Of a stretch of DNA of 64,000 bases, positions 6,001-38,421 are shown one piece after another. Source of the DNA: Magnetococcales bacterium DCbin2 (GTDB taxonomy: Bacteria; Pseudomonadota; Magnetococcia; Magnetococcales; UBA8363); assembly GCA_002753615.1 (NCBI GenBank), contig PEAO01000002.1, positions 30,261 to 94,260 of the forward strand, written 5' to 3'. Positions within the stretch are counted from its first letter, which is position 1. Every line of letters begins with the position of its first letter. The translations under genes and the position numbers were made by a program. The notes beneath the pieces are model-generated. The model did no database searches. It was given only the letters and a program-made list of their open reading frames with translations, and was not told where the DNA came from.

Positions 6001-9000
6001 CAACAGATTACCCGTAGTCACCGAACCATCCTCCAGCAGGCTCACAGCGTCGTCCACCGGGGACAAGGCATTTTCCACCGGGGCGACAGTCATACTGACG
6101 GTGGCGGTGGCACTATCGCCACGGGCGTTGACGATGGTATAGGTGAATGCATCCAAACCGTTGTAAAGGGCAACCGGTGCATACACCAATGTCGCCCCAA
6201 CCGGGGTTACCGTTCCGTGGGTCGGTTGGGTAAAACTTACAAAGGTCAGGACACCCCCATCGGGATCGGTATCGTTGATCATTAAATCATCGGCGATATC
6301 CAGCGTCACACTGGTACTCTCCGCCGTGACAAACCCATCCGCACCGACAATCGGATTATCATTCACCGGCTGCACGGTGATAGACACGTTGGCCACCGCC
6401 ACTTTGGCCCCACCCGCGCCAGAACCACCGCCGTCGCTAACCACCAGGACCAATGAATCAGCACCATTGAAATTGGCCTGTCCCCGATAGAGGATGTGGG
6501 CCAAGGCGGCATTCACATTGGCTGCTGTCCCAGAAACAGTCCATGTTGCCGTCCCATTGCCTCCGGCATCAAAGGTCAAACCCACCGTGGAGGATAACGT
6601 CAAGATTCCATGGGCAACCGTCGCCGTTACCGAGGCATTGCCGCCACCCAAATCGGCATCGGAAAAGCTAATGCCGGTGATGTCCGTATCCACATCCTCG
6701 TTGATGGACTGCGCACCGGGGAGACTCCAAACCGGGGCGTCATTGGCCGCCGTGATGGTAATCGGCAATGCGGTGGTCGCCAACGTCCCCCCCTGGGAAT
6801 CGTTGATATGAAAGCTGAAGCTGTCGGCCAGGGTTTCACTGCCATTGTGGCGATACACCAGATTGCCAGAATCCACATCGACCTGAGTAAACTGCCCCCC
6901 CAACCCCAAAGCGACACCGTTGAGCAGCACACTCCCCTGGGGGGGCAATACATCCAGAACATAGGTCAAATCAGCCGCCGTATCCTCAACATCGGTGGCT
7001 GCAAGGTTGCCATTGCCGATGGTCACATCCCCCCCTTCAGCAACAGTCACCCCATTTTTGACCAAAACCGGGTTGTCATTGGCCGGAATCACCGTCAGAT
7101 TAAAGTTGGTTTCCGTAAGCGAACCGCCCACCCCATCCGCCGCCGTAAAACTGAAATTATCGGCCAGAGTTTCCGACCCACCGTGGGTATACACCAAACG
7201 GTTTTGATTCATGTCATCCTGGGTCCAGGTCTGGCCAGCCACCAGGGCAACACCATTCAACGTCAAGCTGCCATAGTCCGGGGTATTCACCAACGTCAAA
7301 GTCACCTGGGCCGCCGCTTGTTCCACATCTGCTATCTGTAGAAAGACCGGGGTGATCGTCACCGACGCCCCTTCCACCACCGCCGCACCGGTATTGGTGG
7401 CAACCATGGGCATATCGTTGATGTTGTTAACAGTGAGATTTACCGTCCCCACATCGGTTCGGGCATCACCAACACTCAAGGTGTAGGTAAAAGAGTCGGC
7501 TCCCGCATAATCATCATCGGGGGTATAGATAAACTGACCATTCCCCTGGTAGGTCACCTGACCGTGGGCGGGATCGGTAAATCCGATGACCGCACGCGCC
7601 GGGTTCAAACCAAAAGGGAGGAAATCGGGATCACGATCATTGTCCAAAACCCAAAAACTGGTGGCAACCTCCTCATCGGTCGTCGCAGTGTCAGAGTTGG
7701 CTTGCAGGCTGTCGGGAATATCATTGACGACCATCGTGACGACAGACTGGCTGGTGTTACCATGACCATCGCTCACCGTGTAATTAAAAGAATCGTTGCC
7801 ATGATAATTGCTGCTGGAAAGATAGGTCAGGGTACCGTTGCCGTTATCCACCAAGGTGCCATAAGAAGGATTAGTAAAAGAAACCAGCGTGAACAAATCC
7901 CCATCCACGTCGGTATCGTTCGCCAACAGATCGGTGGCGATGGTGATGATCTTTGGAATATCTTCAAACGCGCTGATGGCATCGATGCTAGCGACCGGAG
8001 CATCCTGAACCGCCGTGACGGTGATCCCCAGAGAGGCCGCCGTTGATTGGGCACCACCGCTGCCGGAACCACCCAGATCATTGGCGACGATGGCCAGGGA
8101 TTCGGCACCAAAATAATCACCGTCGGGCTGATAGGTCATCCCGTTCAAGGCGTTGTTCACCTGGGCCACCGTCCCGGAAATCGTCATGGTGGAACTGCCG
8201 TTAGCCCCCGCAATAAAGCTCAAACCCGCCGTCGTTGCTAAATTGATGATGCCGTGGTTCACCGCCAGGGCCAGTTGAATGTTCCCCCCAGCGATATCGA
8301 CATCGGCCACAGAGATACCCGTCAAACTTAAACTTTGATCCTCATTGACTGTCCCTGGAGCCGGAAGGGTGATCACCGGGGGATCATTGACCGCCGACAC
8401 CGTGACATTAACCGACACCGCTACGCTGGCAAGACCACCATCATAGACGCTGAATTGAACCTGGCGGGTGGATGCCTGCGGAGCGGTAGTATTGTCGTTG
8501 ATATACCGCACCGAACGCAGTGCGTTGCGATAGTTGGTCAACGTCGCCGGACCCGAAAGGGTCAACACCCCGGTCGCCCCATCCCAACTGCCGGAAATCC
8601 CCGATTGATTGACAAAGACCAGCCGATCCTCGCCGACGACAAAATTATTGGCGATGGTCACGGTCGCACTTTGCATGGTGGTGTTGTCGGCATCGGCCAC
8701 CGTCACGGTCGCATCCATGACCGTCCCGGCATCGTTCTCCTGATAGTTGAGTGCAGCAGAGGCGGTCATCACCGGGCGATCATTGACCGCCTGCACGGTG
8801 ACGGTGGAGGGACTTGCCGGGCTGGTCCCAAGGGCCGAAGTTACCCTCCAGGCCAGAGTTCGCACCCCGGCGGTGGGATTATCGCCGCCAGCATTGTTGT
8901 AGGTGATGCTCCGCAATGCCGTGAGATAATTGGCCGTCGTCGTGGTGCCCGTCAAAGAGAGTACCCCGGTCCCAGCGTTCCATGTCCCGGTGATGGCCCC

Positions 9001-16817: not shown

Positions 16818-16943
16818 GACTTTGAATGATTTTTCTTACCAAACCCAAGGGACGAAAGTCGCGTCGTTGTCTTCATCAACGACAGAGTACTCGGTCTACC
16901 CAACAATATAGAATCAATTTTTCAACTTGGGTGCAGTATAAAT

Positions 16944-16977
16944 AAAAAACGGCCACCAAAACGGTGGCCGTTTTTTA
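16944..16977. terminator. Bidirectional intrinsic terminator
   Basis: AAAAAA-CGGCCACC-aaaac-GGTGGCCG-TTTTTT. The 8-bp GC stem is flanked by an A-run and a T-run. It lies immediately 3' of the tRNA fragment on the minus strand. Confidence 0.8.
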
Positions 16978-16984
16978 TTTTATT

Positions 16985-17034
16985 TGGTAGGCCGTCACAG
17001 GATCGAACTGTGGACAAGCTGATTAAGAGTCAGT
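16985..17034 (-). tRNA. 3' fragment of tRNA-Lys(CUU), from the anticodon stem to CCA; putative attL core
   Basis: The minus strand reads ctgaCTCTTAAtcag (anticodon loop, CUU) - cttgtc - CACAG-TTCGATC-CTGTG (T arm) - ACGGCCT-A-CCA. No matching 5' acceptor strand (AGGCCGT) or D arm lies to the right, so the gene is incomplete here. Confidence 0.75.
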
Positions 17035-17173
17035 TGTTCTTTAAAAATCCCTCCTTGATCTTCTTCAAATTTTTCTGCGTCAGACGTTATTTGTTCCATG
17101 TAAATAATTAAGATATAACTGAAAATCAGTATCATGTTGCACCATGTTGTCTCGTCTGGTATCATCCAAAAAT

Positions 17174-17224
17174 CACACCCAAAACCACACCCAGGAGATA
17201 TTTTTCACACCCTAAATCACACCC
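17174..17224 (+). promoter_or_regulatory. Four direct CACACCC repeats (candidate integrase arm-type sites)
   Basis: CACACCC occurs at 17174, 17186, 17206 and 17218 (spacings 12/20/12), between the att core and int. An inverted repeat CCCACT...AGTGGG follows at 17222-17247. Confidence 0.5.
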
Positions 17225-17292
17225 CACTGGGATATGATAGAGTGGGTGAGAGCAACTGGTTTCAAAACGTGAACAAATGATTCGGAGAAAAA

Positions 17293-18501
17293 ATGCTCTT
17301 TACCGACAGGTATCTGAAAAGCCTAAAACCAAAAGAAAAACGCTACGAAGTATTAGAGAGCCTTGGTTTCGGCGTCCGAGTCACACCCCATGGGGGTGTG
17401 ACCTTCATCTACGTATATCAATTTGAGGGCCGTAATCGACGAATGACACTCGGAACATATCCAAGCCTAACCCTGTCTGAGGCCAGAAAGAAACATGCAG
17501 AGGCCAGAGAACTTTTTTTGAAAGGTATTGACCCCGGCGCGATTACGCAAACCGCAAAAGAAGAACGCAAGGCATCTCCAACCGTCGCCGAATTGGCAGA
17601 GGAATACATGGAGAAATGGGCCAAAGCGCGGAAAAAATCATGGAAAGAAGATGAACGGATGTTAAATCACGACGTTATTTCTGCCTGGGGCAGACGCAAA
17701 GCCAAGGACATTACAAGAAGGGACGTTATAATTCTTCTTGACCAGATTGTTGAGAGAGGTTCCCCAATAGCCGCAAATCGCACTCTATGTGTCGTCCGCA
17801 AGATGTTTAACTTCGCCCTGTCGAGGGACATCATACAGACCACCCCTTGTGCAGCCATAGCGAGGCCAGCAGAAGAAAACCGGAGAGATCGGATATTTAC
17901 CACAGACGAGACGAGGATTTTTTGGGATCGGCTTGAAATTGTACGTATGGATATTGGAAGCAAACTCGCGTTAAAACTCCAACTCTTTACGGCTCAACGA
18001 TGCGGGGAAGTGAGTGGTGCCCCCTGGACCGAGTTCGACTTGGTGGAAGGATGGTGGACGATTCCCTCAGAACGGGCAAAAAATAAAATGCCACACCGGG
18101 TGCCATTGTCCAAAATGACCAAGGACTTGCTGGCCGAAATCAAAAAAACTTCTGGTGGTGATTCTCCTTGGTTGTTTCCATCCCCACGAGGAGGAAAGCC
18201 TGTCGGCGAAACTGCCCTGGCGCATGCAGTCAAAAAAAATCTGTCGGTGTTCGGTATTCCACCATTCACGCCCCACGACCTACGGCGCACCGCTGCCAGC
18301 CACATGACATCAATGGGAATACCACGCCTAGTGGTTGCCAAAATTCTTAATCATGCCGAAAGCGGAGTAACAGCAGTCTATGATCGACACAGTTACGACC
18401 AAGAAAAACGGCGAGCCATGGACGCTTGGTCAAAACGGTTACATGAAATCGTGAATGGTAGTACCGAAGAGAATGTGGTGGCGTTCGCGGTTAAATCCTA
18501 A
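17293..18501 (+). CDS. int: Tyrosine integrase (P4-like, DUF4102 arm-binding N-terminus)
   Basis: The N-terminus LKSLKPKEKRYEVLESLGFGVRVTPHGGVTFIYVY is DUF4102-like. Catalytic-region motifs are TAQRCGEV, HDLRRTAASHM and LNHAESGVTAVYDRH. Confidence 0.95.
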   Translation: MLFTDRYLKSLKPKEKRYEVLESLGFGVRVTPHGGVTFIYVYQFEGRNRRMTLGTYPSLTLSEARKKHAEARELFLKGIDPGAITQTAKEERKASPTVAELAEEYMEKWAKARKKSWKEDERMLNHDVISAWGRRKAKDITRRDVIILLDQIVERGSPIAANRTLCVVRKMFNFALSRDIIQTTPCAAIARPAEENRRDRIFTTDETRIFWDRLEIVRMDIGSKLALKLQLFTAQRCGEVSGAPWTEFDLVEGWWTIPSERAKNKMPHRVPLSKMTKDLLAEIKKTSGGDSPWLFPSPRGGKPVGETALAHAVKKNLSVFGIPPFTPHDLRRTAASHMTSMGIPRLVVAKILNHAESGVTAVYDRHSYDQEKRRAMDAWSKRLHEIVNGSTEENVVAFAVKS

Positions 18502-18806
18502 TTCAGCCAGCCGAACCCCTTCACCATCGCGCCGAAAACACAGACAAACCCAAAGATCAGGGAAAAGAGCAGAATGCGAAAATCGGTTCGAGTATTATCG
18601 CGAACATCACGGAATTCGGTTCGGGCATTATCGCGAACATCGCTACGAATCTCCTTCATCTCGCCATGAATGTTGTCCATGTGCTTCTCAATATACCCCA
18701 TACCAGCTTCCAGATTTTGCAATACGTGGTTCCATACCGTCTCCACCGCCGCCATCCTGGCCGGAAAAATCTCCGGCCGCATGAGGTAGCACGACTGTAT
18801 TATCAT
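18498..18806 (-). CDS. Small coiled-coil, C-terminally membrane-anchored protein (DUF1640-like architecture)
   Basis: Contains an internal repeat SDVRDNARTEFRDVRDNTRTDFR followed by the TM segment ILLFSLIFGFVCVFGAMV. The start is uncertain (in-frame ATGs at 18806, 18782 and 18755). Confidence 0.5.
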   Translation of the reverse strand: MIIQSCYLMRPEIFPARMAAVETVWNHVLQNLEAGMGYIEKHMDNIHGEMKEIRSDVRDNARTEFRDVRDNTRTDFRILLFSLIFGFVCVFGAMVKGFGWLN

Positions 18807-18821
18807 TCCTGACCGATGGGT

Positions 18822-19669
18822 TCAATGCCCCTCCTCCTTACCATTACCCAAAGCTTTGATAGTGCCACTGACAGAGAGGAGGGATTGAAGTTGGTGGATG
18901 GCAATTCCGTTGAGTCGGATGAGACGCTCGGCTTGTCCCAGTCCCATGCGGATAAATTCAGCGTTCATACTCTCAATATTGGCTAATACCAACAATTGCT
19001 CGATATTGGCATGGTCACGCATATTGCCTTCAAGGGTAGGATTGGCATGGTGCCATTGTTTGGAAGTCTGGCCGAACAAGGCCACGTTGAGTATGTCAGC
19101 CTCGTTGGCGTAGACAATACCAGCTTGTGTGGAGTTATGGCCACAGGAATGATGTGCGCCTTGATGGCATCCGTGTGAATGCGGTAGTTAATTTTGGCCA
19201 ACGTGCGGTTAAGGTTCCACTCCAACGACAGTCGGCGGTTCTCGTCCTCCTTAAGCCTCTGAAACTCCTTGATAAGATAGAGTTTGAATTCTGGACTAAG
19301 CCAGGAGCCAAACTCAAAAGCCAAGTCCCTGTGCGCATAAGTGCCACCACCGTACCGACACGCACGGGATTGAATACCCATGGCCTGGGTCGCTTCAATC
19401 CATTTTCTTGGGGTCAAATGAAAACTGTTTAGCCCAGCATCTTTTTTAAAGGTCTCGAATTCGCCACCTTTAAAATCAGGATTGTGAATCTTCTCCCATA
19501 TTCCTAGGAATTCCAATTTATTGCGATTGCGCATCCAACCGTAAATCAGCGTATCATCGCCAAATTTTTTAGCCATGTCCGTCAGCGAAATGTAGTCCTC
19601 TTCCTTGTGCAGCAAAACGGTTATAGCCGCACCCTGAACATTAATGGTGGTTTTTTTGTCTTTTGTCAT
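18822..19669 (-). pseudogene. KilA-N domain protein (antirepressor-like), split by a frameshift near 19140
   Basis: The N-terminal ORF (19669..) carries INVQGAAITVLLHKEEDYISLTDMAKKF...WMRNRNKLEFLGIWEKIHNPDF, which is KilA-N-like. After ...HTDAIKAHIIP the family-like sequence continues in another frame (rc from 19136: NSTQAGIVYANEADILNVALFGQTSKQWHHANPTLEGNMRDHANIEQLLVLANIES..., track ORF 18822..19085). Confidence 0.7.
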
Positions 19670-19711
19670 CTGTAACGCTTTTCATTATCGTATAATTTGT
19701 TGGCACAGTAA

Positions 19712-19730
19712 AACGTTCACATGGAACGTT
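19712..19730. promoter_or_regulatory. Palindromic operator-like site upstream of the KilA-N gene
   Basis: AACGTTC-acatg-GAACGTT has perfect 7-bp arms. It lies 43 bp upstream of the KilA-N start, next to a possible TTACTG-N16-GATAAT promoter on the minus strand. Confidence 0.45.
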
Positions 19731-19843
19731 ATTGATTTAAAAAATAGTCTACCCCTCACAACCCCACCTCACCCCGCCTTCTTCCCATCCTCGTTCACCT
19801 TCCGCGATTGCGCCCCCGTACTGGCCAGCCGCTCTAATGCGGC

Positions 19844-20035
19844 CTAGTCTCCCTCGGCGCAATGGCGGTAGTTGTCCACCAAGGCCGCCTCCCGATGGGA
19901 AAGGCTCTCTTTTGAGGGGATAGAGCGAACTCCGGTAATGATGTAACTCACGTCAGCACCGACGGCGGCAATGGCTGAAAGATAGCCAGAACTTGGCTCG
20001 CGTTCACATTTTTCATAATTACCTTGGGACAGCAT
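19844..20035 (-). CDS. Small HTH-like protein (63 aa)
   Basis: GYLSAIAAVGADVSYIITGVRSIP resembles an XRE-type HTH. The start overlaps the upstream stop (TGATG), suggesting translational coupling. Confidence 0.5.
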   Translation of the reverse strand: MLSQGNYEKCEREPSSGYLSAIAAVGADVSYIITGVRSIPSKESLSHREAALVDNYRHCAEGD

Positions 20036-20460
20036 CAGATATCAGGCGTGATAAATGTGTTGCCGCATCTGTGACAATACATCTTGCTTTTCCACTCAGC
20101 AATTGCATCTTCGTGCAATTGCTTATTCCTCTTGAACATTTCAGATCCACGAAATAATAGGAAAACGGCAATTGAAGAAAGAAAAAACACTATGGCTGTA
20201 AAGTTTCCACTGGCTTCTTTTGGTATAAAAAAGAGCAAGCCAACAGGGAAGAGGGAAACTGCACACCCAAGGTTGACATTTTTATTTTCTGGGGGTGCAA
20301 ACATTTTTTGATTTAGTTTTTGCGTGACTCCCACGCCACCAACGACATGTCCTCCTCCGACTCCAACGCCTAAATGAACTTCCTGGGAATTGTGTATTCC
20401 ATCGTATCTTTGAGTATTATCGCTATTACACTTTGGGCAATCATATTTATTATTTGTCAT
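20035..20460 (-). CDS. Membrane protein with a split zinc ribbon (CPKC ... 2 TM ... CHRC)
   Basis: MTNNKYDCPKCNS..., a Gly-rich linker, two hydrophobic segments (LGCAVSLFPVGLLFFI, FTAIVFFLSSIAVFLLF), then ...YCHRCGNTF. The region looks AT-rich. The ORF could extend to 20517. A perfect TATAAT lies just upstream on the minus strand (~20527-20532). Confidence 0.55.
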   Translation of the reverse strand: MTNNKYDCPKCNSDNTQRYDGIHNSQEVHLGVGVGGGHVVGGVGVTQKLNQKMFAPPENKNVNLGCAVSLFPVGLLFFIPKEASGNFTAIVFFLSSIAVFLLFRGSEMFKRNKQLHEDAIAEWKSKMYCHRCGNTFITPDI

Positions 20461-20641
20461 ATACATTTGCCTACATATAAACATTAAGTGAACTATTGGA
20501 TAAATATACACATCCATGATATTGCATTATATTAGGCATTGTCCAGGATGACCGTTTCGTCCCCAGTCAATCTTTCCCCTTGATAAACTCACGTCTTGAC
20601 GCATTTTTACTAAGCGATGTTGTGACCCGGCGTTGATTCCA

Positions 20642-21313
20642 TCACATCCTTCTCCCCGCCCACACTACGCGACCGATGATCCGTAGAGTCTCCAGGTCGG
20701 TATCGTCCGGGGTCAACGGTGGGTGGACCGGATTATCGGATAGGATTTTAAATTGTCCTTTCCCAACACGATGAATGCGCTTGACGAACAACTCCCCGCT
20801 CATATGGAAAACATAAACTGCGTCTTGGGTGAACCTTTCCTCGTCTTTCCGGTCAACGAGGATCCAATCCCCGCTTGACAGCGTCGGTGTCATTGAGTCT
20901 CCGATTACCCGAATCATGGCGGCTTTGTCGGCACGAACCCGCAAATCCCTGATGAAATCCTCCTGAAATGCAAACGCGGCATCCTGGAATTCATACTCCA
21001 CGACAGCCCCTGTCCCTGCTGACGCAACTACCTCACTGTAAGCTGCGACGTACACAAGCCCGTCCTTGTGTGGGACTATCGGCGTTTCAGTTTCCACTCG
21101 CATCGGACCACGGCCAGTCAGAAGCCAATCAAGCGACAATGATTCGCGTTCTGCGAATTCAATTGCCGACGCTGACGGCATATCTCCCCGCTTTTTCCAC
21201 GAACTTACCGTTTGTGGTGCGACCCCAATTTTATCTGCAACAAATTTATTTTCATTATTTTTTAAATAGTCTTCAACCCTGCTCAGGATGGGCGGGGATT
21301 TTTTTGCCTGCAT
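20642..21313 (-). CDS. CI-like repressor (HTH + S24/LexA-type peptidase)
   Basis: The N-terminal HTH reads FVADKIGVAPQTVSSWKKRGDMP. The C-terminal part carries S24 motifs (VIGDSMTPTLSSGDWILVD ... LFVKRI). Confidence 0.9.
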   Translation of the reverse strand: MQAKKSPPILSRVEDYLKNNENKFVADKIGVAPQTVSSWKKRGDMPSASAIEFAERESLSLDWLLTGRGPMRVETETPIVPHKDGLVYVAAYSEVVASAGTGAVVEYEFQDAAFAFQEDFIRDLRVRADKAAMIRVIGDSMTPTLSSGDWILVDRKDEERFTQDAVYVFHMSGELFVKRIHRVGKGQFKILSDNPVHPPLTPDDTDLETLRIIGRVVWAGRRM

Positions 21314-21398
21314 TTTGCGGATTCCTTGTTGACATTATATGCGTATCGCGAATATTTTGACATCCAAGATGTACCCACAACGAACACAAGCAAAGAAG
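21314..21398. promoter_or_regulatory. Divergent cI / cro-like switch region
   Basis: Rightward: TTGACA 21329-21334, N18, TATTTT. A second TTGACA lies at 21357-21362. Leftward: a perfect TATAAT on the minus strand (21334-21339) with a poor -35, resembling an activator-dependent PRM. Confidence 0.5.
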
Positions 21399-21629
21399 AT
21401 GCCAATGAGCAATTTGCAGATAAGAGCAAGACTGATCGAAAAAGGCGAGACCCTGCGAAGCTGGGCACTCCGGAGAGGGTGGAATCCCCGCACCGTGCTG
21501 GCTGCGATTGAACGTCACTCAACTAAGGCCAATACGACTCATCGGAGACGGGGACCTTTTGGCAAGATGACTATTCAAATCCTGGAGGATCTGAACCAGG
21601 ATACGGGGATCAAAGTCGATGAGGAATGA
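21399..21629 (+). CDS. Ner/Cro-like HTH regulator
   Basis: MSNLQIRARLIEKGETLRSWALRRGWNPRTVLAAIERH resembles Mu Ner-type HTH proteins. The gene is divergent from cI. The start is ATG 21399 or 21405. Confidence 0.7.
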   Translation: MPMSNLQIRARLIEKGETLRSWALRRGWNPRTVLAAIERHSTKANTTHRRRGPFGKMTIQILEDLNQDTGIKVDEE

Positions 21630-23585: not shown

Positions 23586-24035
23586 TCAAAGCAACTTCAC
23601 CAGTGCCGCCACAATCGCTATCGATGCTGCCATCATTCCACCAAGACGCATGGTCAGGTTGTGCGTGAGTCGCAATTCCATTTCTTTCATCTTGGCTTGT
23701 AAGCTGGCATCAAGTTCCTTCATGTCGCGCTTGAGTCCGGTTTCCATTTCCTTCATATCGCGCTTAAGTCCAGTTTCCATTTCCTTCATATCGCGCTTGA
23801 GTCCGGTTTCCATCTCCTTCATGTCACGTCGGACGTTCTCAATGTCGCGCTTGAGACCAGCTTCGATCTCCTTCATGTCACGCCTTACAACATCGATGTC
23901 CAACTTAGTCGCCAGCCGTTCTTCCATCAAATCAACGATGGTTTCGGCCTGGACTTCTGCCTGGGCTTCGGGAACACCAGCGGCTTTAAGTCTCTTGGCA
24001 TACGCCAATGTGTCAAACGCAATCGCGGTACTCAT
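23586..24035 (-). CDS. DUF1640-like coiled-coil protein with C-terminal membrane anchor
   Basis: MSTAIAFDTLAYAKRLKAAGVPEAQAEVQAETIVDL is the characteristic DUF1640 N-terminus. It is followed by repeated TGLKRDMKEME units and the TM segment LGGMMAASIAIVAALVKLL. GGAGA lies upstream of ATG 24035. Confidence 0.8.
   Translation of the reverse strand: MSTAIAFDTLAYAKRLKAAGVPEAQAEVQAETIVDLMEERLATKLDIDVVRRDMKEIEAGLKRDIENVRRDMKEMETGLKRDMKEMETGLKRDMKEMETGLKRDMKELDASLQAKMKEMELRLTHNLTMRLGGMMAASIAIVAALVKLL
23718..23816 (-). repeat. 33-bp tandem repeat x3 (plus degenerate flanking units) inside the DUF1640-like gene
   Basis: The units are 23718-23750, 23751-23783 and 23784-23816 (cttcatRtcgcgcttRagtccRgtttccatYtc). 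Each encodes an 11-aa (T/S)GLKRDMKEME repeat. Confidence 0.9.
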
Positions 24036-24380
24036 GGGAAATTCTCCTTCCAGGGTTACAACTGGGATAAGCGTACCACGAGCCACTATCAGACAACAGA
24101 TAAAATTCCCCCTTGACACCTTCGCCAGCAGGGCAGTAGCATTTCACCCGTCACGTCAAAAAAACGTGACCGGGTTTAGCAGCCCGAATGTGTTCAAGGC
24201 ACGCAAGTGCCGCAATCCCCATGTTGGCACTTTTTTTGCGCCTACATGTCTGGCGGATTGTGTGAGGGATCCTTCGGGATCGCCGGTTTCCTTGAACGCC
24301 GGTACTGCTAACCACACACGATCCGCCATTTCGTTTAGCAGCGAATGGCGGGTTCCAGATTTCAGTTCAAGGAGCCAGTC

Positions 24381-28828: not shown

Positions 28829-29692
28829 ATGAATGACTACGGAGAGCGCACCATGTTAACCGTCATTGATCTGTTTTCCGGCATCTGCGGGTTCACGCTG
28901 GGTCTTGAGAAGACAGAGGGATTCAAGACGGTGCAGTTTTGCGAGATCAACCAAGCACTCCACTCGCACATCGAGGGACACTATCCAAATGTTCCATTGC
29001 ACGCAGACATCCGGTCGTTGCACCTGCCGCGCGGGTTTGCTGATGTGGTTGTCGGCGGATTTCCGTGCCAGGACATTTCAAACGCAGGATTGGGGAGAGG
29101 ATTGGATGGACCAAAATCCAGCTTGTGGTGGGAGATGTTCCGAGTCATCCGGGATGTCCGCCCATCTTGGATCATCATCGAAAACAGTCCAGTTCTTCGT
29201 AGTCGAGGACTATGCCAGATTCTCCGGGCACTTGATGAGATCGGGTACGATGCGGAATGGCATTGTATCCCGGCTTGCGCCGTTGGTGCGCATCACGAGA
29301 GAGACCGGCTTTTCATTATTGCCCACCCTGACCGCGACGGACGCGAACGGGAGAACGTATCACGGTGGGCCGCGTGGCGGCATCTCTCTCCTGGGGATGA
29401 TACGCCTCTTACCCACGCTCTGCGCAACCGACTGGCGCACTGGATATCGCCTGGACTCGGTGCGGGGGGAAATTCAACGGGCAAAACGCTCCAAACCGTT
29501 GCGGGACATCATCGCCCCTGGTGGCCAACTCAACCCGACGTGGTGTCAATGGTTCATGGGGTTCCCCGACGGCTGGCTGGATGGCGAAAACAGGCTGTGA
29601 TGGCCCTGGGTAACTCCGTGGTGCCGCAAGTGGTGCGGCTTATTGGGGAGGCGATTTTAGAGATCAGTGTACTCGAAGGGAGGCTTTCGTGA
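28829..29692 (+). CDS. DNA (cytosine-5) methyltransferase; middle ~90 codons are out of the ancestral frame
   Basis: Frame 1 carries DLFSGICG (motif I), GGFPCQDIS (IV), IIENSP (VI), AHHERDRLFIIAH (VIII) and ALGNSVVPQVV (X). The typical intervening segment LLPTLTATDANG...LLPTLCATDW...QLNPTWCQWFMGFPDGW is encoded in the other open frame (track ORF 28866..29600). Confidence 0.8.
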   Translation: MNDYGERTMLTVIDLFSGICGFTLGLEKTEGFKTVQFCEINQALHSHIEGHYPNVPLHADIRSLHLPRGFADVVVGGFPCQDISNAGLGRGLDGPKSSLWWEMFRVIRDVRPSWIIIENSPVLRSRGLCQILRALDEIGYDAEWHCIPACAVGAHHERDRLFIIAHPDRDGRERENVSRWAAWRHLSPGDDTPLTHALRNRLAHWISPGLGAGGNSTGKTLQTVAGHHRPWWPTQPDVVSMVHGVPRRLAGWRKQAVMALGNSVVPQVVRLIGEAILEISVLEGRLS

Positions 29693-29759
29693 TGGTGGCA
29701 ACGCCGGTGTGGGTCAGGCGGATGGCGGCAGCGGTATCACTTGCTGCTGGGGAGCTACA

Positions 29760-30686
29760 ATGAACGTCCGCATCACCCCGCTCGACGGAAAGTTGCCGAA
29801 TCTGGCCCTAATGCGCTTGGCCAGTTTCCACAGGGAAAACGGAGACCAAGTAACCGTAACCCGGTCGCTGACACGAGAACTTGGTGAGCCGAAGCCGGAT
29901 GTCGTCTATGGGTCTGCAATTTTCAATTCCTCATTCAGGCAAGTAGAGGATTTCAGGAAGCAGTTCCCGGACGCGATTATTGGAGGCACAGGGTCGGGGA
30001 ACTGGCAGACAGTGGAGGAAATCATCGGCCAAGAGTGGTTGCGCGTCGATTACTCCGACTACCCGAATTGCGACGCCTCCATTGGCTACACCATGCAGGG
30101 GTGTCGGTTCAAGTGTGAATTCTGCATTGTCCCCAAGAAAGAGGGGAAACCCCGCGCTACCAGCACCATCCTGGATATCTGGCGTGGCGGTCTGCACTCC
30201 CGCAAGCTCCTTCTGTTAGACAGCGACTTCTTTGGCCAGCCGGAAGGGGCGTGGCGCAAGCGAATCGACGAAATCCGGACAGGCGGATTCCGTGTCTGTT
30301 TGGAGCAGGGGATCAACATCAGGACCATCACAGATACCCAGGCGGCATCACTGGCATCTATTGAGTACCGATGCACAAAGTTCCAGCGACGCCGCCTTTA
30401 TTGCGCATGGGACCGCCTGCGGGACGAGCGACGGTTTTTCGATGGAGTGGACCGTCTGGATCGGGCCGGGATTCCTCCGCACCACCTGCGGGCCTATATG
30501 CTCATCGGCCATGACCAAGAAGAGACCATCGAGAGCCGGTTGTATCGGTTCAATAGGATGGTCGAGCGCGGGATTGAGCCATATCCGATGCCGATTGACC
30601 GGAAGCAAAAAGACTTGATGGCGTTCTCCCGGTGGGCCGCGACGGGGCTTTATCGGGCGGTGCCGTGGAAGGAGTACAGGGGATGA
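29760..30686 (+). CDS. Radical SAM-type protein (CxxxCxxC) with a B12-binding-like N-terminal region
   Basis: GYTMQGCRFKCEFCIVP carries the CX3CX2C cluster motif. The N-terminus LPNLALMRLASFHRENGDQVTV resembles the Rossmann-like lead-in of class B enzymes. GGGGA RBS before ATG 29760. Confidence 0.65.
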   Translation: MNVRITPLDGKLPNLALMRLASFHRENGDQVTVTRSLTRELGEPKPDVVYGSAIFNSSFRQVEDFRKQFPDAIIGGTGSGNWQTVEEIIGQEWLRVDYSDYPNCDASIGYTMQGCRFKCEFCIVPKKEGKPRATSTILDIWRGGLHSRKLLLLDSDFFGQPEGAWRKRIDEIRTGGFRVCLEQGINIRTITDTQAASLASIEYRCTKFQRRRLYCAWDRLRDERRFFDGVDRLDRAGIPPHHLRAYMLIGHDQEETIESRLYRFNRMVERGIEPYPMPIDRKQKDLMAFSRWAATGLYRAVPWKEYRG

Positions 30687-37032: not shown

Positions 37033-38421
37033 ATGAGTTTGCAGATTGAGGACTGGCCATTGGACCGGTTGATTCCATATGCCAAAAATCCAAGACGCAA
37101 CGATGAAGTGGTGGACCGCATGGTGGGTGCCATCCGGGAGTTCGGCTTCCGCATCCCCATCGTCGCCAAGAGCGATGGACTGGTTGTGGACGGTCACCTG
37201 CGTCTCAAGGCCGCCCGGCGGTTGAATCTGGAAACGGTGCCGGTGGTCCTGGCCGACGACCTCACCGAAGCCCAAGTCAATGCGTTTCGACTGCTGGCCA
37301 ATCAGTCCGCCAATTGGGCCGAGTGGGACGAAGAATTGTTGAAAAACTTACTGGGTGAATTGCGTGACCTCGATTTCGACATGGAGATGACCGGTTTCGA
37401 TATGGAGGAGATTGACCGTTTGTTGTTGGACATGGGAAACGGGACCGAGGGCAATGCTGGTGAAGGTGGCCCCACGGAGGAAGAATCCATCCCTGAACCG
37501 CCAGCCAAGCCAGTCACCCGCACCGGTGATCTCTGGTGCCTGGGCGATCACCGGTTGCTTTGCGGTAGCAGCATCGTCGCAGATGACGTGATCCGGCTGA
37601 TGAAAGGCGAACGGGCGGTACTTTTTGCGACCGATCCGCCATATCTTGTGGATTACGACGGCACCAACCACCCGCCCACCAAGACGATCAATGAGAGGCA
37701 GGAAAAAGCAAAGCTGGCCGCTGAGGGAAAGGTGAAGAAAGGATGGTTGGATGGCAACAAGGACTGGTCTGGCACCTACGGAGTAACATGGGATGACGCC
37801 AACCAGGGACCGGAACTCTACGAGGGGTTCATCAAGAACGCCATTGACCACGCCATTGGCACCCATGCGGCATGGTACTGTTGGCACGCATCCAAACGGC
37901 AAGCAATGTTGGAGGCGGTGTGGGAAAAGTTTGGGGCATTTGTCCACCAGCAGATTATCTGGAACAAGAACTCCCCCGTTCTGACACGGACGCACTATCT
38001 CTGGAAGCACGAACCCTGTTTCTACGGTTGGATTCGTGGCAACAGGCCTGAAAAGATCGAAGGTGCAGAACCAGTTTATTCGGTGTGGGACATCAAGGGA
38101 CTCACCGGGGATGCACGCCCTGACCATCCGACGCCGAAGCCTCTGGATTGTTTCGCCATTCCTATGCGCCAGCATGTGGAACTTGGTGGGCTGTGCTACG
38201 AACCGTTTTCTGGGTCAGGATCGCAGATTATGGCAGGGGAAACGACGGGCCGGAAAGTTTACGCCATGGAGATCAGCCCGGTCTATGTGGATGTGGCGGT
38301 AAAGCGGTTCATCCATGCCACCGGCAAGATCGTCTACCTGGACGGCTCCGGTGGGAAAACGTTTGAGGATGTGGCGGCGGAACGTGGAGTGGGTCTGGCA
38401 GACTCGGGGAACACAGATTGA
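37033..38421 (+). CDS. ParB-like nuclease domain fused to an N6/N4 DNA methyltransferase
   Basis: The N-terminus LIPYAKNPRRNDEVVDRMVGAIREFGFRIPIV...DGHLRLKAARRL is ParB-N-like. The methylase part carries CGSS...LFATDPPY and a C-terminal YEPFSGSGS SAM-binding motif. Confidence 0.9.
   Translation: MSLQIEDWPLDRLIPYAKNPRRNDEVVDRMVGAIREFGFRIPIVAKSDGLVVDGHLRLKAARRLNLETVPVVLADDLTEAQVNAFRLLANQSANWAEWDEELLKNLLGELRDLDFDMEMTGFDMEEIDRLLLDMGNGTEGNAGEGGPTEEESIPEPPAKPVTRTGDLWCLGDHRLLCGSSIVADDVIRLMKGERAVLFATDPPYLVDYDGTNHPPTKTINERQEKAKLAAEGKVKKGWLDGNKDWSGTYGVTWDDANQGPELYEGFIKNAIDHAIGTHAAWYCWHASKRQAMLEAVWEKFGAFVHQQIIWNKNSPVLTRTHYLWKHEPCFYGWIRGNRPEKIEGAEPVYSVWDIKGLTGDARPDHPTPKPLDCFAIPMRQHVELGGLCYEPFSGSGSQIMAGETTGRKVYAMEISPVYVDVAVKRFIHATGKIVYLDGSGGKTFEDVAAERGVGLADSGNTD

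Follow-up and report, generated by a model that had tools for sequence, protein, structure and literature searches.

Directly downstream of its cI-type repressor gene, a prophage of Magnetococcales bacterium DCbin2 carries a small open reading frame (ORF), here called ORF1, that looks like a stand-alone, AT-rich gene of foreign composition set into the lysogeny module, much as a moron would be. The prophage lies in a stretch of 64,000 nucleotides (contig PEAO01000002.1, positions 30,261 to 94,260) that was analysed as a whole, is referred to as the window and is numbered from its first letter. ORF1 encodes a small protein that is predicted to sit in the membrane by a helical hairpin and to form one zinc ribbon from its two ends, and it belongs to a family that is real but uncharacterised. 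ORF2, which overlaps the end of ORF1, is best read as the remnant of a gene for an XRE-type regulator. Taken together, the locus is probably best explained as a foreign membrane zinc-ribbon gene standing alone beside an XRE remnant and, far more tentatively, having a role of the exclusion type; position and genomic context make such an exclusion or defence role plausible. An earlier, sequence-only reading of this DNA had seen in ORF1 and ORF2 an AT-rich two-gene operon in the position that rexA and rexB occupy in lambda. The placement and coordinates of the pair, directly downstream of cI on the same strand and between cI and the integrase gene (int), are confirmed, and the TGATG overlap that joins the two ORFs is indeed present. 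It is ORF1 alone, though, that emerges as the object of interest: a structurally distinctive new family in a classical moron and exclusion slot.

ORF1 contains each of the elements previously read from its sequence, namely an N-terminal CPKC motif (residues 8-11), a Gly-rich stretch, two hydrophobic segments (residues 61-81 and 83-106 in a Kyte-Doolittle scan) and a C-terminal CHRC motif (residues 129-132). A word-indexed search of 5.8 billion proteins returned nothing beyond ORF1 and a single weak relative. When 1.84 billion cluster representatives were scanned exhaustively with HMMER, 204 proteins matched at E ≤ 1e-3, and the family comprises ~200 clusters when these are defined at 50% identity. 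Nearly all representatives are 130-165 amino acids (aa) long and align to ORF1 from end to end. The family consensus reads CPxCxSxNTQ...Y..GTS...GxGxG...GxG...QxxLAxxxAPPxK, followed by the hairpin and then NxxxYPxxxxxWxxxxxCxRCGxxF. In an alignment of 116 sequences, the sole invariant columns are C8, C11, C129 and C132, with S13, P56, P57 and W123 conserved in at least 90% of members, and every member (116/116) carries exactly two CxxC motifs, one at each end. Because the four Cys residues are invariant in all 116 homologues, the split CxxC...CxxC arrangement is not a product of chance.

The likely membrane topology follows from the distribution of charge. Family-wide, a hydrophobic span of 40-50 residues is divided by a loop with a mean length of 3 residues, and Lys plus Arg residues average 5.9 per member on each flank of the hairpin versus 0.5 in the loop; this positive-inside signature argues for a hairpin with both the N- and the C-terminus in the cytosol. 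AlphaFold2 (AF2) modelling, which the sequence-only reading had proposed as a check, produced a confident model from the family alignment, with a mean predicted local distance difference test (pLDDT) score of 82.9 and a predicted template-modelling (pTM) score of 0.67. Local confidence is 90-96 at both termini (residues 1-20, 90-96; C-terminal strands, 93-96) and 91 for residues 51-60; the Gly-rich loop is modelled as coil at low confidence (57-62). Short strands occupy residues 16-18, 126-129 and 135-137, and helices residues 65-78 and 87-125. With both termini modelled at high confidence, a hairpin topology and four invariant Cys residues, the N- and C-terminal knuckles are both predicted to be cytosolic and to meet in a single zinc ribbon, as the sequence-only reading had suggested. 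As judged from the alignment, conservation is confined to the cytosolic parts, the hairpin being conserved in hydrophobicity alone, and since the sequences of the transmembrane (TM) segments are not conserved, the hairpin behaves as a membrane anchor. ORF1 tethers a conserved cytosolic module composed of both termini and the Gly-rich loop.

Curated collections do not contain this family, and the earlier impression that no described exclusion system is recognisable here is borne out: Pfam, NCBIfam, PHROG and PADLOC gave no significant match to ORF1. Pfam matched neither ORF1 nor 41 of its homologues, PADLOC gave no ORF1 match at E ≤ 1, and the PHROG matches were sub-significant and covered the CxxC stretch only. 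Among named zinc-ribbon families, the best score was 19.5 bits versus a cut-off of 27 (Zn_ribbon_PaaD), followed by 17-18 bits versus 36-37 (YnfU and ECs_2282); these sub-threshold matches to generic zinc ribbons, including Zn_ribbon_8, involve only the N-terminal knuckle. A Foldseek search with the AF2 model found no match in PDB or BFVD at E ≤ 0.001, and a profile search of PDB sequences with the ORF1 family returned noise only. Full-text searches of the literature for membrane proteins that bear a zinc ribbon and act in exclusion or against phages found nothing.

ORF1 also departs from its surroundings in base composition. The G+C content (GC) is 39.9% in ORF1 and 38.7% in the spacer between cI and ORF1, compared with 51.3% in cI, 53.6% in ORF2, 50-52% in the cro-side genes and 50.9% over the entire prophage; at third codon positions, ORF1 reaches 35.9% versus 54-62% for cI, ORF2 and the cro-side genes. 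The description of an AT-rich pair thus applies to ORF1 and its spacer, but not to ORF2, whose composition resembles that of cI. Within the spacer, sigma-70-like hexamers that match the consensus are present as TGGACA-18-TATCAT at 20545-20516 and, overlapping it, as the perfect TATAAT previously noted ahead of the pair (20531-20526, minus strand). Both promoter-like -10 boxes lie at or after the ATG that would give a 160-aa product, homologues begin 2-12 residues before CPxC, and the gene calls of NCBI and the Joint Genome Institute (JGI) use the shorter form; for these reasons the 141-aa start is favoured over the 160-aa start. The minus strand shows no predicted terminator-like site from cI to ORF1, so transcripts from the cI promoter might also read through. 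Operators for cI were also sought upstream of ORF1 and none was detectable, a 14-mer comparison with the cI/cro region remaining at chance level. Downstream, the RNA fold of 19690-19860 is no stabler than those of shuffled sequences (z = -0.33), and a perfect palindrome within this interval (Table 1) could act either as a weak terminator for the ORF1 transcript or as an operator or regulator site.

Morons are defined by a GC content unlike that of their neighbours together with a promoter and a terminator of their own (PMC3594210). For ORF1, the GC content is deviant and the putative promoter consists of consensus matches; a terminator of its own was not found, so that the gene fits the classical definition only partly. 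What makes it moron-like is the combination of an AT-rich gene with a spacer that bears promoter-like hexamers.

ORF2 had been described as a 63-aa protein with an XRE-like helix-turn-helix (HTH), yet it is homologous only to the part of such regulators that comes after the HTH motif. A tblastn search of 50,697 phage genomes with ORF2 matched 208 records from Ralstonia, Burkholderia and Pseudomonas phages at 46-52% identity over ~90% of its length. The matched regulators are 138-177 aa long (BcepMu gp17, phiE255 gp46 and Komp_PAO1_1 CDS53, and likewise the JBD67 type) and possess a complete HTH_3 or HTH_31 domain. ORF2 shares with them ~55 residues that comprise the end of helix 3, helices 4-5 and a tail of the form L-x-x-E-x-x-L-(V/L)-x-x-YR, but is devoid of the first ~30 and the last ~50 residues. 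Residues 3-60 of ORF2 align to residues 32-86 of gp17, whose HTH_3 domain spans residues 8-54 in Pfam; ORF2 therefore starts inside recognition helix 3, at about profile position 25, and has none of HTH_3 positions 1-24, which make up helix 1, helix 2, the turn and the first part of helix 3. The motif GYLSAIAAVGADVSYIITG, previously taken for the HTH, corresponds instead to helices 4-5, and Pfam gave no HTH match for ORF2 even at E ≤ 0.1. By this comparison, ORF2 cannot be a conventional HTH DNA binder.

The missing part of the regulator gene appears to have been lost altogether. An in-frame TGA is found two codons upstream of the ORF2 ATG, and tblastn searches of positions 19400-20700 with three full-length regulators recovered the N-terminus in no frame, which indicates that the 5' part was deleted or replaced, not displaced. 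A simple insertion that moved the HTH half upstream of ORF1 is ruled out by the same result. Homology breaks and composition changes at one and the same point, the ORF1/ORF2 junction at the ORF1 stop codon, and ORF2 is best read as a 5'-truncated XRE gene remnant without its first ~30 codons. With gp17 and Komp_PAO1_1 CDS53 as queries, the tblastn alignments do not end at the TAG stop of ORF2 but continue weakly into AALERLASTGAQ; this thin evidence hints at a second lesion. What is left of ORF2 may be translated by coupling through the TGATG overlap. In BcepMu (locus L001, 1408-2603) and phiE255 (locus L002, 1411-2612), two of the phages with full-length relatives of ORF2, the XRE gene (gp17 and gp46, respectively) is followed immediately, with a 4-bp overlap, by a gene for a 260-aa product annotated as a membrane protein.

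Twelve further genomic contexts of ORF1 homologues were retrieved, ~7 of which contain plasmid, integrase, toxin–antitoxin (TA) or defence markers. On an Alicyclobacillus plasmid, the homologue resides inside a type IV secretion system (T4SS) cluster, flanked by two other small membrane proteins; on the conjugative plasmid pANACY.02 of Anabaena cylindrica, it falls between a giant DEAD/DEAH helicase and DUF4351/ParM. One homologue is found downstream of a double-AAA ATPase that matches the Iet defence ATPase IetA (E = 8e-61) and another downstream of a DUF4011/AAA_11/AAA_12 helicase. A Schwartzia contig has a divergent XRE gene and a BrnT toxin beside the homologue, and a further contig has a divergent XRE gene, PDC-S31, an Xre-ParS antitoxin domain and HipA. 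Other members are located in a string of small genes that contains a resolvase and, in decayed form, in an integrase/AlpA island, where a deletion has fused the homologue to its downstream neighbour. Contexts free of obvious mobile-element markers feature HxsD/radical SAM genes, an OmpA-like protein, DUF6301 genes or unannotated genes beside metal-transport genes. No neighbouring gene is conserved among the 12 contexts, and none of them (0/12) has an ORF2-like gene after the ORF1 homologue. Small upstream ORFs at three loci (L056, L057 and L060) were considered as partners and rejected; they are mutually unrelated, look like spurious calls and do not encode HTH proteins.

Overall, the family occurs in Bacillota, Cyanobacteria and the phylum of this metagenome-assembled genome (MAG), and it is a sporadic, cross-phylum accessory gene that leans towards mobile elements and defence or TA islands. 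Longer relatives are fused to additional zinc ribbons (DZR), GYF_2, SHOCT or the L12 C-terminal domain, all of them generic cytosolic modules. Plasmid searches gave only three records with the family, one of them an unannotated fragment. In the decayed island copy, from a metagenomic relative, the N-terminal ~45 residues of the homologue are joined to the C-terminal part of the downstream neighbour (L012, 1692-2030, compared with L004, 6001-6785), which shows that some lineages lose the gene or let it decay. On the Serpentinimonas maccroryi plasmid NZ_AP014570.1, an unannotated stretch (8284-8466) encodes no more of a family member than 41% at the C-terminal end, with 59% identity to P0159; this, too, is probably a fragment of a gene.

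In position and gene style, ORF1 comes nearest to superinfection exclusion (Sie)-type morons and lambda rexB; in architecture, it comes nearest to the LITAF domain. As with rexA and rexB, ORF1 sits directly downstream of cI on the same strand, and its product is membrane-embedded and roughly the size of RexB. RexB has four TM segments and needs RexA, whereas ORF1 encodes a hairpin of two TM segments, has no RexA-like partner and shows no homology to RexAB (PADLOC, E ≤ 1); ORF2 is a fragment of a regulator and not a sensor. Position aside, the locus does not conform to the two-gene definition of RexAB. With prophage Sie morons (HK97 gp15, P22 SieA, T4 Imm, Sie2009 and Ltp), ORF1 shares a small membrane protein product, a stand-alone gene of deviant GC, a promoter-like signal and a place beside the repressor gene. 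HK97 gp15 is a cited example of moron-type exclusion (PMC3594210), and lactococcal Sie2009 and Ltp of S. thermophilus are encoded between int and the repressor gene (PMC3952083). ORF1 differs from the Sie proteins in that no sequence or fold similarity was found (PHROG, PADLOC and BFVD), in its predicted cytosolic zinc ribbon, in its near absence of periplasmic exposure and in the lack of a detected terminator.

The predicted architecture of ORF1 resembles that of the eukaryotic LITAF/SIMPLE-like domain (PF10601), in which a CxxC motif, a hydrophobic segment and a second CxxC motif follow one another with both ends on the same side; the likeness is one of architecture only. The LITAF insert is ~25 residues long, compared with ~115 residues between the knuckles of ORF1, where a Gly-rich linker is combined with a hairpin whose two helices are full TM segments. 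In the LITAF domain, Cys knuckles on either side of a membrane-inserted hydrophobic segment form one cytosolic zinc ribbon, both termini are cytosolic, and the one hydrophobic insert anchors the domain in the plane of the membrane without crossing it (PMC5142333). Homology to LITAF was considered and rejected: there is no Pfam match, and hhalign gave a probability of 2.6% against human LITAF, for which an approximate sequence was used. Plasmid entry-exclusion proteins, such as TraS of F and Eex of SXT/R391, are small inner-membrane proteins that are encoded in transfer regions and carry specificity determinants on the cytoplasmic side. The ORF1 family recalls them in having one homologue inside a T4SS cluster and another on a conjugative plasmid, but most members lie outside transfer regions and no relationship in sequence is known.

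These findings are compatible with a model in which an AT-rich cassette, consisting of promoter and ORF1, would have entered the immunity region by recombination and thereby taken out the 5' end of the resident XRE gene, the simplest history for the junction. In the lysogen, ORF1 would be transcribed from its own sigma-70-like promoter, by read-through from cI or both; the product would insert into the inner membrane, act from the cytoplasmic face as a single-component protein and exclude incoming mobile DNA, either by phage superinfection exclusion or by plasmid entry exclusion. We hold such single-protein exclusion only tentatively, as a possible function suggested by the rexAB/sie-type position, the moron features and the plasmid, T4SS and defence-island contexts of homologues. 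It is more doubtful that the whole family represents an undescribed single-gene class of exclusion or defence on mobile elements, in which a split zinc ribbon on a TM hairpin, convergent with LITAF, would block the entry or establishment of phage or plasmid DNA from the cytoplasmic face. If ORF1 were expressed in lysogens and caused exclusion, it would represent a structurally new single-protein family among the exclusion determinants of prophages and plasmids, and a bacterial counterpart of the LITAF-type split zinc-ribbon membrane anchor. The locus also illustrates cleanly the mosaic turnover of immunity regions, with a foreign cassette abutting the stump of an older regulator near a frameshifted candidate defence gene.

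Several observations weigh against an exclusion role, foremost among them the minimal periplasmic exposure of the protein and the absence of its family from sequenced phages. The external loop of the hairpin measures 0-10 residues and the TM sequences are not conserved, which leaves little periplasmic surface to contact a phage tail or DNA channel. Two different queries found the family in none of the 50,697 GenBank phage genomes. In IMG/VR, ORF1 as a single-protein query gave no match, and a scan with a degenerate DNA pattern for the motif W-x5-C-x-R-C-G-N-x-F returned 37 loci, none of which is a family member; the sole hidden Markov model (HMM) match among them is an off-frame artefact. Because the family is absent from the phage genomes searched, ORF1 is not a typical phage exclusion gene; indeed, the family as such is not typical of phages, and this prophage is an unusual carrier. 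In addition, the fusion modules GYF_2, SHOCT, zinc ribbons and L12 C-terminal domain give no hint of defence, the promoter upstream of ORF1 is a consensus match only, and the fit to the moron definition is weakened by the lack of minus-strand terminator-like sites after ORF1 or ORF2. Finally, the neighbouring genes are decaying, with a frameshifted KilA-N gene and the truncated XRE gene on one side, and ORF1 could itself be on its way out. ORF1 is intact and has all of its conserved residues.

The likeliest of the alternatives is that ORF1 is a membrane-tethered zinc-ribbon adaptor unrelated to exclusion, for example in stress, envelope function or regulation, carried by the prophage for lysogenic conversion or as a neutral passenger. 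The family is found mostly in cellular genomes and metagenomes, is absent from the sequenced phages searched and is rare on plasmids, its fusions to GYF_2, SHOCT, DZR and the L12 C-terminal domain follow a pattern typical of generic membrane-tethered proteins in bacteria, and some contexts, such as those with HxsD/radical SAM genes or the OmpA-like protein, contain no mobile or defence genes. Against this, both a base composition so unlike that of the surroundings and a site within the immunity region argue for selection as prophage cargo, and the plasmid, integrase, TA or defence markers in ~7 of the 12 contexts point the same way. We regard such an adaptor as a doubtful alternative, albeit one of some weight.

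An effector of the abortive infection (Abi) or toxin type, in which the ribbon and the Gly-rich loop would sense infection and the hairpins would oligomerise and depolarise the membrane in the manner of lambda RexB and of two-TM effectors, while nearby XRE repressors keep it off, is unlikely. A small protein with a two-TM hairpin in the rexB position would suit this role, as would the three homologue loci that combine a divergent or close XRE gene with TA- or defence-like genes (BrnT, HipA, PDC-S31 and the IetA-like ATPase). GxGxG patterns are typical of tightly packing membrane peptides, and one family member was automatically annotated by JGI as an ATP synthase c-subunit; in ORF1, however, the Gly-rich segment is predicted as coil and forms no part of the hydrophobic hairpin. 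Pore-forming effectors usually conserve packing motifs, whereas the TM sequences here are unconserved. There is, moreover, no RexA-like partner sensor and no PADLOC match at E ≤ 1, and a promoter of constitutive appearance is hard to square with a toxic product.

Slightly less likely again is that ORF1, ORF2 and the KilA-N gene constitute a leftward early operon, similar to the PL operon of lambdoid phages, that is repressed by cI and comes into play on induction or in lytic growth, for example to take over the host or to time lysis. All three genes point from cI towards int, a promoter-like site is present just downstream of cI, and KilA-N proteins are typically products of early or anti-repressor-type genes. 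The best 14-mer match of the spacer to the cI/cro intergenic region has 3 mismatches, however, and is equalled or beaten in 67 of 100 shuffles, so that any sharing of operator-like sequence does not exceed chance; the spacer upstream of ORF1, unlike the cI/cro region, contains no palindromes. This evidence is purely negative. Such an operon would consist of one intact, one truncated and one frameshifted gene, and the foreign composition of ORF1 marks it as a recent add-on rather than a core early gene. That ORF1 and ORF2 form a functional two-component system of a membrane protein and a small DNA-binding regulator is very improbable, for although the TGATG overlap would permit translational coupling and ORF2 is clearly homologous to phage regulators, ORF2 is truncated within its HTH, differs from ORF1 in base composition and has no counterpart downstream of ORF1 homologues. 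The two-gene operon of the sequence-only reading is hence abandoned; the pairing is an artefact of gene decay and a caution that overlapping ORFs are not necessarily operons or systems.

The minus strand of this region reads, in order, cI, the 181-bp spacer, ORF1, ORF2, the KilA-N gene and a 102-aa ORF (Table 1). The KilA-N gene matches PDC-S22, a candidate single-gene defence family of PADLOC, and is split by a frameshift: residues 5-182 of the first ORF match PDC-S22 positions 3-182 (E = 8e-85) and the second ORF matches positions 196-273 (E = 2e-26). It is absent from the NCBI gene calls, all three assemblies give the same sequence for it, and a pseudogene is the probable reading.

Table 1. 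Coordinates in the window of the features of the lysogeny module.
Feature	Position	Strand	Remarks
Tyrosine integrase	17293-18501	+	Pfam Phage_integrase, Arm-DNA-bind_3, Phage_int_M; left prophage end
102-aa ORF	18498-18806	-	Overlaps int stop by four bases (18498-18501), opposite strand
KilA-N / PDC-S22-like gene, frameshift-split	18822-19669	-	ORFs 18983-19669 and 18822-19085
Perfect 7-5-7 palindrome AACGTTC-ACATG-GAACGTT	19712-19730		Between ORF2 and KilA-N promoter-like site
Candidate former continuation of XRE gene AALERLASTGAQSRKVNEDGKKAG	19772-19843	-	Beyond ORF2 TAG stop
ORF2, 63 aa	19844-20035	-	3' portion of XRE regulator; joined to ORF1 by TGATG overlap 20037-20033
ORF1, 141 aa	20035-20460	-	Maximal ORF to ATG at 20517, 160 aa
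C-terminal zinc knuckle CHRC, residues 129-132	20065-20076	-	Invariant; inside conserved W-x5-C-x-R-C-G-x-x-F motif
Hydrophobic helical hairpin, residues ~61-106	20143-20280	-	TM1 ~62-80, ~5-residue loop, TM2 ~87-106
Gly-rich linker LGVGVGGGHVVGGVGV, residues ~30-45	20326-20373	-	Conserved Q..L....APP.K motif lies between linker and TM1, directly ahead of TM1
N-terminal zinc knuckle CPKC, residues 8-11	20428-20439	-	Invariant in 116/116 homologues
AT-rich spacer	20461-20641	-	38.7% GC; 25% GC core at 20405-20534
cI-type repressor, 223 aa	20642-21313	-	Pfam Phage_CI_repr E = 5e-10, Peptidase_S24 E = 4e-20; PHROG 4 transcriptional repressor E = 3e-41

The prophage that contains this module is apparently complete. 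From the tyrosine integrase rightwards, the window holds rightward early genes, DNA methyltransferases, the large terminase and the portal, and further right a head protease/major capsid fusion and a 1605-aa tape-measure protein. The region is 100% identical in contig JADFWV010000002.1 (MAG GCA_015234035.1, labelled 'Nitrospirae bacterium' at NCBI), in a JGI metagenome contig and in a Logan assembly of ERR711863; since three independent assemblies agree completely, the gene arrangement is not an assembler artefact. With cI as the query, no close relatives of the prophage were found in IMG/VR or the genome collection, and the metagenome collection gave a single locus (L018) with a cI of 28% identity. 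No tRNA gene is present anywhere in the window, so the attachment site is not a tRNA. Immediately left of the integrase, an AT-rich stretch (37-39% GC) extends over 16900-17300.

On the other side of the repressor gene, the divergent cI/cro region contains overlapping promoter-like sites and an inverted repeat, ATATGCG-N5-CGAATAT at 21337-21355, that is a candidate operator. The cro-like ORF (21339-21629, plus strand) probably starts at 21405 to give 74 aa; similarity to the PHROG family sets in at residue 23 of the long ORF, and both JGI and Logan call a 74-aa gene there. At 28829-30686 (plus strand) a DNA methyltransferase gene precedes a radical-SAM gene, and 37033-38421 (plus strand) encodes a ParB-like/DNA methyltransferase fusion; these prophage genes may be anti-restriction or DNA-modification cargo. 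Amid the plus-strand early genes, a 177-aa ORF on the minus strand (23586-24119) encodes a coiled coil of the CCDC90-like/DUF1640 type with a C-terminal hydrophobic tail. It shows weak, sub-threshold PADLOC similarity to ZorA and LeoC and contains a 33-bp tandem repeat at 23715-23900 (3.3 copies, 92% matches) that encodes RDMKEMETGLK units.

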